From: Escherichia phage nataliec
Sequence record: MN850611.1
DNA: 64,000 nt
Direction: 5' to 3' (one strand)
The translations under genes and the position numbers were made by a program. Shown here piece after piece: positions 33,637 through 35,440 of the stretch. Under the pieces are notes generated by a model. It was not told the origin of the DNA and searched no databases. It saw only the letters and a list, made by a program, of their open reading frames with translations. Numbering within the stretch: position 1 is the stretch's first letter; every line of letters begins with the position of its first letter.

Positions 33637-33720
33637 AATGACCTCAAAGTTATATTAAATTTTGTATTACATTGAGTATAAAAATAAGCTATAACACCTG
33701 ACTTGTCAACAGATTTTATA

Positions 33721-34125
33721 GCTTATTTGGCAGATTTTTTATAAGGCTACTGCCATCCTTCCATACCAAACCCTACCGAACAGAACCATGCTTTGCCATA
33801 CTGGACAACACCTGACCAGACATCACTTAAAAACCCTTTTCAAAGACTCTTAAGTGATGTAATCGAATTTTAATGTAGCTCCGATTAACTACCCATACCT
33901 TGCATTACTTCACCAAACCATACATTACCAGACCATGCCACACCTGTCCAAACTCAACCTCATTAAAAGACCCTCTTTAAAGACCTTTTAATAAGGTAAG
34001 TCTCATTTTTATGTAGTTGAGACTAACTACCCATACCAGACCCTACCTTACCAAACCAGACCTCACCCTACCCCACCATACCGTATACTACCTCATTAAA
34101 AGACCCTGTTTAAAGACCTTTTAAA
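33721..34125. repeat. three tandem ~130-bp intergenic repeat units (CA-rich on plus strand) each ending in a palindromic motif
   Basis: recurring 'tttttat..gtagct..actacccatacc...[CA-rich]...cat(c/t)a(c/a)ttaaaa(g/a)accc' units; palindrome catcacttaa(33820-33829)/ttaagtgatg(33849-33858). Confidence 0.6.
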
Positions 34126-34146
34126 AAGGAGCCTCCGAAGAGGCTA
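34121..34146 (-). terminator. Rho-independent terminator (minus strand)
   Basis: gcctc-cgaa-gaggc hairpin followed on minus strand by CCTTTTTAA. Confidence 0.5.
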
Positions 34147-34156
34147 CCCAGTCAAC

Positions 34157-34597
34157 TTAGAAAGGTTTTCTGCGTTGCTTGTTAATGTTAGCTTTCATAG
34201 CAGCTAAATGGTTTTGCTGTTCAATCAGTCGTGAACGTTCTTGATGGCTAAGTGCCATAGTGTTCACATTCTCAATCGCTTGAGTGGCTTGCTTTAAAGC
34301 ACGACCAATCTTACCAGACATTTTGCGTTTTGCAATAGTTGCTTGATGCTTAGGTTCGACAACACGATAACCAACACCCATTGAAGCAACCAGATAAATC
34401 TTCTCTTCTTTAAGAAGCTTCTCAATAAACTTCTCAAGTCGGTTTAGACGTGTAAGTGCATAAGCCTTCATTTCATCTTCGTACTTAACAATGTCACCTT
34501 GATAGGTTGGCTTCACAATACCTAAGAAGGTATCCATCTCAGAATGTGATACAGTGTCACCGTAACTAAACTTTGCTGCTAATGCTTTTGTATTCAT
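34157..34597 (-). CDS. hypothetical protein
   Basis: track ORF. Confidence 0.45.
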   Translation of the reverse strand: MNTKALAAKFSYGDTVSHSEMDTFLGIVKPTYQGDIVKYEDEMKAYALTRLNRLEKFIEKLLKEEKIYLVASMGVGYRVVEPKHQATIAKRKMSGKIGRALKQATQAIENVNTMALSHQERSRLIEQQNHLAAMKANINKQRRKPF

Positions 34598-34599
34598 AA

Positions 34600-35202
34600 T
34601 TAAACGTTACCTTCTGAAATAACTTCTACAGAAAAACGACCAAAGCGTGGGCGCCAATCACCTACACCACAAAGGTTACCAGCATTTTCCAAAACCATCA
34701 AGAGTTCCTCTTTGGTGATTTGCTCTTCATCGAACATCAAACCAAACTCTACAGACCAGTCACGGAAGATTGGACGGTAGCTCATAACTCGTGCTGTACC
34801 AATCTTAACAGACTTAGCATAGATAAAGTCTGGATTCTTAGCAAGTTCTTGTGGGTTTGCTGGACAGTTCTTGATAGTCATTGGGAAGACTACATCTGTC
34901 AGCATAATGGCTCGGTCAATTACCTTACCAAGTTTGTTGAGTTTTGCACCAGACTTGATACAAGCCTCAATCATCTCACCGTTCATAACAAAACCTAGCT
35001 GCTCATCGTAGTAACAAGAAGTTACCAGTTGGCTTTCTGCTAAGAGCGCATAATCTTCGTCAGTCTTTTTACGTTTACTGGACAGAGACTTGTGATATTT
35101 TGTCAGAGGATTTAATGGGTCTGACAGCGTATCAGCGTGGCTCAGGAAAGGACGAGTACCAGTGATTTTGATATTTAACAGTTTCATAGCATTTAGCTCC
35201 AC
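34600..35202 (-). CDS. hypothetical protein
   Basis: track ORF. Confidence 0.45.
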
Positions 35203-35269
35203 ACTTTAGTTGATTGTTAAGTTGTTTGTAAAGAACCCTCAACAGAAGACTCTTTAGAAACTTGGTAGA

Positions 35270-35440
35270 TTTTTAACGTGGCTACTACCATCCACCCATA
35301 CCTCACCTAACAACACCTAACAACACAAAACTACACCCCACACCACCGCACCACACCAAACATCACTTAAAAACCCTCTTAGAAGACCCTTAAGTGATGC
35401 TGGTGAGTACCCGTTGGTTTATGCTGCTCAGTATACTCAC
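35270..35440. repeat. fourth copy of the CA-rich intergenic repeat unit with the same terminal palindrome, plus 8-bp inverted repeat ggtgagta/tactcacc
   Basis: catcacttaa 35360-35369 / ttaagtgatg 35388-35397; ggtgagta 35401-35408 / tactcacc 35433-35440. Confidence 0.55.

Follow-up and report, generated by a model that had tools for sequence, protein, structure and literature searches.

Intergenic repeats of Escherichia phage nataliec very probably encode the guide RNAs of a type II VIPR system

What is encoded by four similar DNA segments that occupy two gaps between minus-strand genes of Escherichia phage nataliec (MN850611.1)? The analysed stretch of 64,000 nucleotides, hereafter the window, contains four same-strand units of ~135 bp, three in tandem and one located 1.1 kb apart, and all genes neighbouring the units are likewise encoded on the minus strand. 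A profile built from the four units matched positions 33727-33862, 33860-33999, 33997-34131, and 35261-35402, all on the minus strand and with E values from 1e-31 to 1e-35, and did not yield a fifth unit in the 64-kb window. Tandem Repeats Finder indicated a 138-bp period across positions 33827-34129, and the conserved core pattern occurs four times compared to 0.02 expected occurrences. The profile search thus recovered the four copies of a ~130-bp repeat that a first-pass annotation had described, and the terminal palindromes catcacttaa/ttaagtgatg reported there were seen at 33821-33859 and 35361-35399. This earlier reading offered operators, promoter/terminator cassettes, or small-RNA genes as explanations, and overlooked both a 5-nt periodicity and the tie to the pair of genes that the repeat sites enclose. 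In the Felix O1 genome paper, the repeat goes unmentioned.

Since a coding frame might have been missed, we searched both repeat-bearing gaps and found no gene-strand open reading frame (ORF) of at least 30 amino acids. Together with the 5-nt period, which is incompatible with codons, this result indicates that the repeat region is non-coding, and the intergenic status assigned before was upheld. Rfam 15 comprises no family, CRISPR families included, that reaches the gathering score within positions 33700-35440; its matches in the window are restricted to 24 tRNAs. The 24 tRNA genes are clustered at positions 869-6210 on the plus strand, as is usual in Felix O1-like phages.

Read on the minus strand, each unit consists of a G·U-rich hairpin of ~19 bp, followed by 13-14 Y-N-N-G-G pentamers and a pseudoknot tail of ~35 nt. 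Unit U4 extends over 35262-35401 (hairpin 35359-35401, tract 35296-35366, tail 35262-35295), U3 over 33997-34132 (hairpin 34087-34132, tract 34031-34095, tail 33997-34030), U2 over 33859-34000 (hairpin 33953-34000, tract 33893-33962, tail 33859-33892), and U1 over 33727-33860 (hairpin 33820-33860, tract 33761-33826, tail 33727-33760), each on the minus strand. The CA-rich tract noticed earlier is therefore present, but on the gene strand it represents a strict 5-nt repeat, (Y-N-N-G-G)13-14, with perfect pentamers at 8 of 14 positions in U4, 12 of 13 in U3, 9 of 14 in U2, and 8 of 13 in U1. When 90 tracts were parsed from 98 distinct units, the three conserved positions of the pentamer were occupied by G (0.97), G (0.80), and T (0.89; C 0.10), the spacer positions contained 0.12-0.13 bits, and the length of the 90 tracts varied by 5-nt steps. 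All 16 spacer dinucleotides occur in the tracts.

The palindromes at the 5′-end of the units are real; however, they are not separated by the 19-nt spacer assumed before. With minus-strand G·U pairs allowed they form one continuous hairpin of ~19 bp with a loop of 3-5 nt, whereas pairing on the plus strand is confined to the outer ~10 bp. The consensus over 46 distinct hairpins comprises 16 pairs, six of which show compensatory changes, while three remain G·U or U·G throughout. The outer stems differ between copies, as exemplified by CATCACTTAA versus CCTTATTAAAAG, and their complementarity is kept. In a third hairpin variant, found in units of the loci L003, L124, and L127 (e.g., L127 3715-3867), the loop of the 5′ hairpin carries an insertion of ~24 nt (AATTATATTCGATAGAGTATCTCAT). 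At the opposite end, the tttttat...gtagct...ctac segment is present as described, and actually represents two interleaved helices, that is, an H-type pseudoknot with an A-rich third loop. Pairing of the tail is retained in 93.4% of the cells compared to 75% after shuffling and 27-46% with the partners slid, and 9 of the 11 tail pairs are altered on both sides, although this covariation reflects few independent events because only four tail sequence types exist.

The pentameric tract led to the protein encoded between the repeat sites. An exact scan of IMG/VR for the pattern (GGTNN)6GG, which has 20 specified bases and for which ~0.1 chance matches are expected, gave at least 120 matches. Among the matches listed, 52 of 117 loci contain degenerate tracts with diverse spacers, often arrayed, and an all-against-all BLAST of the ORFs near the tracts revealed a single dominant family of ~180-230 amino acids in 30 loci. 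The 195-aa protein of the window (34600-35187, minus strand; alternative GTG start at 35202) belongs to this tract-adjoining family. Over its full length it is identical to PDB entry 36pp, 'SUSP1 Vipr protein', at 192 of 195 positions (E 8.5e-129), and the RNA-contact residues H17, E71, M72, R138, C173, D177, W178, and R179 are all present. In 28 of the 29 other loci, located on unrelated viral contigs among the matches listed, the tract and the Vipr homologue share the same strand, and the tracts usually begin 2-115 nt past the stop codon of the homologue or just upstream of its start. No Vipr homologue was detected within 4 kb at 23 of the 52 degenerate-tract loci, as judged by crude ORF calling among the matches listed. 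A loose scan of viral contigs with a 14-base pattern gave mostly chance matches, and blastn of the array against E. coli genomes gave no match.

The arrays beside distant Vipr homologues differ widely in architecture (L166, L177, L165, L173, L189, and other IMG/VR contigs). For instance, L166 harbors seven tracts of 10-13 pentamers placed 3 nt apart, and L177 contains 12 tracts with 14 exact pattern matches, each closing with AAGGAATGG or AAGGAAAGG followed by T-rich bases.

The Vipr protein corresponds to phrog_4652. The second gene between the repeat sites (34157-34597, minus strand) encodes a Vipr-accessory protein of 146 amino acids that is 99.3% identical to the product of the SUSP1 gene adjoining vipr and corresponds to phrog_5926; its name, vap, is taken from the description of the SUSP1 locus (doi 10.64898/2026.04.26.720920). 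Pfam holds no family for Vipr or Vap, and a search of the PDB gave no match for Vap. The structural VIPR preprint places T175 in the pyrimidine pocket; residue 175 is a valine in both 36pp and the Vipr protein of the window, and T175 probably reflects an error in numbering or typing.

VIPR (Viral Interference Programmable Repeat) has recently been described, in two bioRxiv preprints of 2026, as a phage RNA-guided DNA silencing system related to CRISPR, in which Vipr polymerises on the vrRNA with one protomer per pentamer, gripping the GGY triplets, while the NN bases pair with double-stranded DNA with every third target base skipped, so that transcription is repressed (10.64898/2026.04.26.720920, 10.64898/2026.04.26.720927). 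In cells infected with SUSP1, four vrRNAs of ~100 nt were sequenced, one encoded upstream and three downstream of the genes, and these unit RNAs co-purify with Vipr (10.64898/2026.04.26.720920). In line with this length, tract plus tail amount to 105 nt in U4 and to 99-105 nt over all units. The published clade is delimited by >90% identity to the SUSP1 Vipr, a RAMP-like protein of ~20 kDa, a vrRNA is expected to contain 9-16 YNNGG repeats, and a target is defined by a match of at least 80% of the NN bases with a 1-nt skip and no gaps. In the window, we found a Vipr protein with >90% identity, an adjacent vap gene, 13-14 pentamers, a pseudoknot tail, and the layout of one unit upstream and three downstream; moreover, two of the four guides match natural DNA under the 1-nt skip, and none has a self-target at 70% or above.

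The locus shares with that of SUSP1 a Vipr protein of 98.5% identity (tblastn to the SUSP1 genome), a Vap protein of 99.3% identity, the position between the DNA ligase gene and a 127-aa gene, one upstream and three downstream vrRNAs, 13-14 YNNGG repeats, the pseudoknot tail, and the kind of satellite that is targeted. It differs in that SUSP1 is a Suspvirus, whereas the phage of the window is a Felixounavirus, and in that all four NN codes are unlike the four of SUSP1. We are therefore highly confident that the repeats represent the four vrRNA genes of a SUSP1-clade VIPR system of type II, with U4 as the upstream vrRNA gene and U3, U2, and U1 as downstream vrRNA genes 1, 2, and 3, and that the flanked genes are vipr and vap. 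Among the options offered by the first-pass annotation, small-RNA genes was thus the correct one. Expression, Vipr binding, and silencing have been demonstrated for SUSP1 and a Pseudomonas system (10.64898/2026.04.26.720920, 10.64898/2026.04.26.720927); for the present locus we computed the protein identity, the repeat anatomy, the tail pseudoknot, the layout, the lack of self-targets, and, for guides U3 and U1 among the four, targets on satellites.

The natural targets of the SUSP1 clade are mostly located on a satellite of E. coli whose tape-measure and baseplate genes are homologous to those of the phage (10.64898/2026.04.26.720920, 10.64898/2026.04.26.720927). We found a chromosomal element that is 85-95% identical at the nucleotide level to positions ~12460-14208 of the window, comprising tape-measure and baseplate genes, in 394 E. 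coli genomes. The eight copies that we fetched (L268-L272, L276-L278) are ~10 kb in length with recombinase genes at their ends, and the satellites occupy at least three insertion sites, namely yciI-tonB, a site within a DUF72 gene near yecD, and yegS-yegR. The copies are often riddled with IS elements, and the matches obtained with a satellite query holding an IS2 copy were dominated by IS sequences.

The code was tested with 86 guides of at least nine pentamers from 32 Felix O1-like loci against five satellites, which encode neither Vipr nor Vap. A match of at least 80% of the NN bases was obtained for 41 of the 86 guides with a 1-nt skip, compared to 1, 0, and 0 guides with skips of 0, 2, and 3 nt, and for a single one of 430 order-shuffled guides. 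The predicted target of U3 (CGATAAGACCAGAGGTAGTGACCTGTTAAACAGGCTGTT) lies at positions 11998-12036 of satellites L271/L272 in an unannotated part and matches 23 of 26 NN bases (88%). The match of this guide was borderline in the first three satellites, and a query designed as the ideal target retrieved the better-matching variants. The predicted target of U1 is located inside a satellite gene (L272 13440-13478 and L276 9942-9980); with 21 of 26 NN bases the match of 81% is barely above the published threshold of at least 80%, and in L272 every skipped base falls on codon position 3. None of 200 shuffled guides each reached the score of U3 or U1. We did not find a target for U2 and U4 in the eight satellites, and these two guides are more degenerate, with 9 of 14 and 8 of 14 perfect pentamers, respectively. 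No guide matches the window at 70% or above, and no exact 10-dinucleotide target of U3 or U1 was detected when IMG/VR was scanned. The satellites L271, L272, and L276 carry YNNGG tracts of their own on the minus strand of a gene-free gap, which end with GGTATGG like the phage vrRNAs; this agrees with the remark in the VIPR preprint that satellites encode vrRNAs (10.64898/2026.04.26.720920, 10.64898/2026.04.26.720927).

A promoter scan of the locus yielded three candidates, all outside of the units: P1, P2, and one before vipr. P1 is a near-consensus sigma-70 promoter (TTGACA-16-TATACT; 35430-35457, minus strand; score 11/12) situated between the stop codon of the ligase gene and U4, ~25 nt upstream of the latter. 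Its sequence recurs in 31 of 32 related loci, among them that of the vipr-less Salmonella phage ph2-2, and judging from the sequence it would function as a promoter. The putative promoter P2 of the 127-aa gene (TTGACA-17-TATTTT; 33709 to 33681, minus strand; score 10/12) is likewise kept in 31 of 32 loci. Its -35 element and spacer are overlapped by a 19-nt inverted repeat (33682-33728) with a U-rich tail, the whole element spanning 33681-33728 on the minus strand (arms 33682-33700 and 33710-33728, 89% complementary, 9-nt spacer). This element could be the terminator of the array, its 3′ boundary and last processing site, or a true operator, as an HTH gene is located nearby. The only canonical terminator revealed by a terminator scan of the locus is the intrinsic one after vap (AGCCTCTTCGGAGGCT followed by a T-run; 34130-34145, minus strand), which runs into the 5′ hairpin of U3 and is found in 22 of 32 loci, that is, in those with the cassette. 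The scan for promoters did not reveal a recognisable promoter of its own for the downstream array behind this terminator. Between U4 and vipr, we observed a remnant half-hairpin (AAAGAGTCTTCTGTTGAGGGTTCTTT; 35230-35255, minus strand), whose likeness to the hairpin core was judged by eye and which may either delimit the upstream vrRNA on its 3′ side or represent a junction resulting from cassette insertion.

Each vrRNA is bordered on both sides by a G·U-rich hairpin, the hairpin remnant, or the 19-nt inverted repeat at P2. Such borders around every vrRNA suggest excision from a longer transcript, with the flanking G·U-rich hairpins of ~19 bp possibly serving as maturation signals, perhaps for RNase III. 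In the proposed mechanism, transcription from P1 would proceed through the locus, and vrRNAs of ~100 nt would be freed at the hairpins, possibly by the host RNase III. As derived from the SUSP1 experiments, Vipr protomers would then polymerise on the vrRNA, one per pentamer, holding the GGY triplets, and the two variable bases per pentamer would pair with double-stranded DNA, skipping each third target base. Binding would silence the transcription of a competitor, mainly of the small E. coli satellite with phage-related tape-measure and baseplate genes. In the main VIPR preprint the terms hairpin (apart from the tail), orphan, terminator, and Felix are absent, and the flanking hairpins as well as the orphan vrRNA genes described below are not covered by the VIPR preprints.

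The assignment as vrRNA genes has to be weighed against readings in which the units act as DNA or serve another RNA function. According to the first-pass annotation, the terminal palindromes would be operators of a nearby HTH protein and the units regulatory DNA. An HTH_3 protein is indeed encoded ~700 bp off (32747-33046), and each unit contains inverted repeats, but a DNA operator should hold its sequence, and the stems instead covary and stay complementary, with three invariant G·U or U·G pairs that form on one strand only, as minus-strand RNA. Since, in addition, unrelated contigs pair such units with Vipr homologues and not with HTH genes, and the units of SUSP1 have been sequenced as RNAs co-purifying with Vipr (doi 10.64898/2026.04.26.720920), we regard an operator function as extremely improbable. 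The flanked two-gene block, which only part of the relatives possess, the 1 to 3 copies per site, and the software of one annotator, which labelled the hairpins as terminators, would also fit recombination cassettes that shuffle the block in and out, as known from the PeSLs of T4-type phages, short intergenic stem-loop repeats flanking genes that are gained or lost among relatives (PMC2839356, PMC4122927). However, PeSLs unite a terminator with a strong promoter, are dispersed over numerous sites, and are not guide RNAs (PMC2839356, PMC4122927), whereas the units studied here lack an internal promoter and are confined to two sites rather than spread throughout plastic regions; moreover, a PeSL role requires neither a hypervariable NN code with real targets nor a conserved pseudoknot. 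We thus consider this explanation very unlikely, and promoter/terminator cassettes, as proposed before, capture a side aspect at most: one sigma-70-type promoter precedes a unit, none lies within one, and the hairpins lack a canonical U-tract. Recombination between units is plausible as a side effect and not as their function.

Tandem repeat RNA with a pseudoknot beside a protein of ~200 amino acids is also reminiscent of ToxIN, and the locus contains a terminator, which raises the possibility of a type III toxin-antitoxin-like pair with a repeat RNA that neutralises a toxic ~200-aa RNase. Here, though, the protein is the structurally solved Vipr, which according to the preprints is a RAMP-like RNA-binding protein and not ToxN-like, the repeats are hypervariable at the NN positions instead of being identical, and, with a specific skip rule applied, the guides fit foreign DNA, so that the probability of this alternative is negligible. 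Other readings of (GGUNN)n, namely two-tier G-quadruplexes, an R-loop replication origin, a cluster of primase sites, a Shine-Dalgarno sponge, a Rho loading site on the antisense strand, a type III antitoxin RNA, and a PeSL-like cassette, were dropped after the match to the Vipr family and the PDB entry. The nearest idea had been a TRAP-like ring binder, a protein oligomer on triplets, which was superseded by Vipr. The trp leader RNA bound by TRAP in Bacillus contains conserved triplets separated by non-conserved 2-nt spacers, with one subunit per triplet. TRAP forms a closed ring that acts in attenuation, and the spacers carry no information, in contrast to the open helical filament of Vipr, where the spacers are the guide.

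Following the comparison made in the preprints, the VIPR system assigned here resembles the Cas7-type (RAMP) filament of Class 1 CRISPR in that one small RRM/RAMP-type protomer covers each short RNA period, and the crRNA in that bases are periodically flipped out of the guide-target pairing and a constant structured handle caps the variable guide. In contrast to Class 1 CRISPR, there is no spacer-repeat array, no acquisition gene, and no nuclease at the locus, and the guide is noncontiguous, with two of five RNA bases reading two of three bases of a double-stranded DNA target. The authors of the preprints propose that VIPR is older than CRISPR (10.64898/2026.04.26.720920, 10.64898/2026.04.26.720927).

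The phage of the window is a Felix O1-like myovirus with Escherichia phage vB_EcoM_Shy as the best match (96.6%), and the units occur in its relatives with 1-3 copies per site. Vipr is encoded in 117 Felix O1-like phage records compared to ~230 records that match the array region, and in 17 compared to 75 of the Salmonella-named records. About half of the Felix O1-like phages contain one or two vrRNA genes behind P1 without vipr and vap. In Salmonella phage ph2-2 (L126/L274-L275; OL474141.1, 27174-27310), a single unit is located between P1 and P2, and vipr and vap are absent across the entire genome. This unit combines the head of the upstream vrRNA with the tail type of the last downstream one, which is the expected product of a deletion by recombination between the flanking units. 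When guides of orphan genomes were set against those of vipr-positive genomes, the GGY integrity was 72% versus 78%, and satellite matches were obtained for 3 of 12 versus 38 of 74 guides. Orphan vrRNAs could be maintained and functional rather than recombination scars, either by using the Vipr protein of a co-infecting relative or as decoys that soak up the Vipr protein of a rival; we consider this possible but rather unlikely. The record of Escherichia phage warpig (MN850637.1; record end 85960-86101) ends 5 nt past a match whose end falls within the first vrRNA unit. Short-read assemblies probably break at the array, and copy numbers in public records may therefore be unreliable.

Taken together, the phage VIPR locus belongs to a system that has been described before, so that its novelty is low, while its biology is striking: VIPR is a newly reported way in which RNA reads DNA, with two guide bases per pentanucleotide repeat. 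For annotation, 'intergenic repeats' become vrRNA genes, and two hypothetical proteins become Vipr and Vap. Felix O1-type phages, which find wide use in the typing and therapy of Salmonella and E. coli, commonly carry the system, and there it represents a gain-or-loss cassette whose fast-changing guides are directed against a satellite present in hundreds of E. coli genomes.
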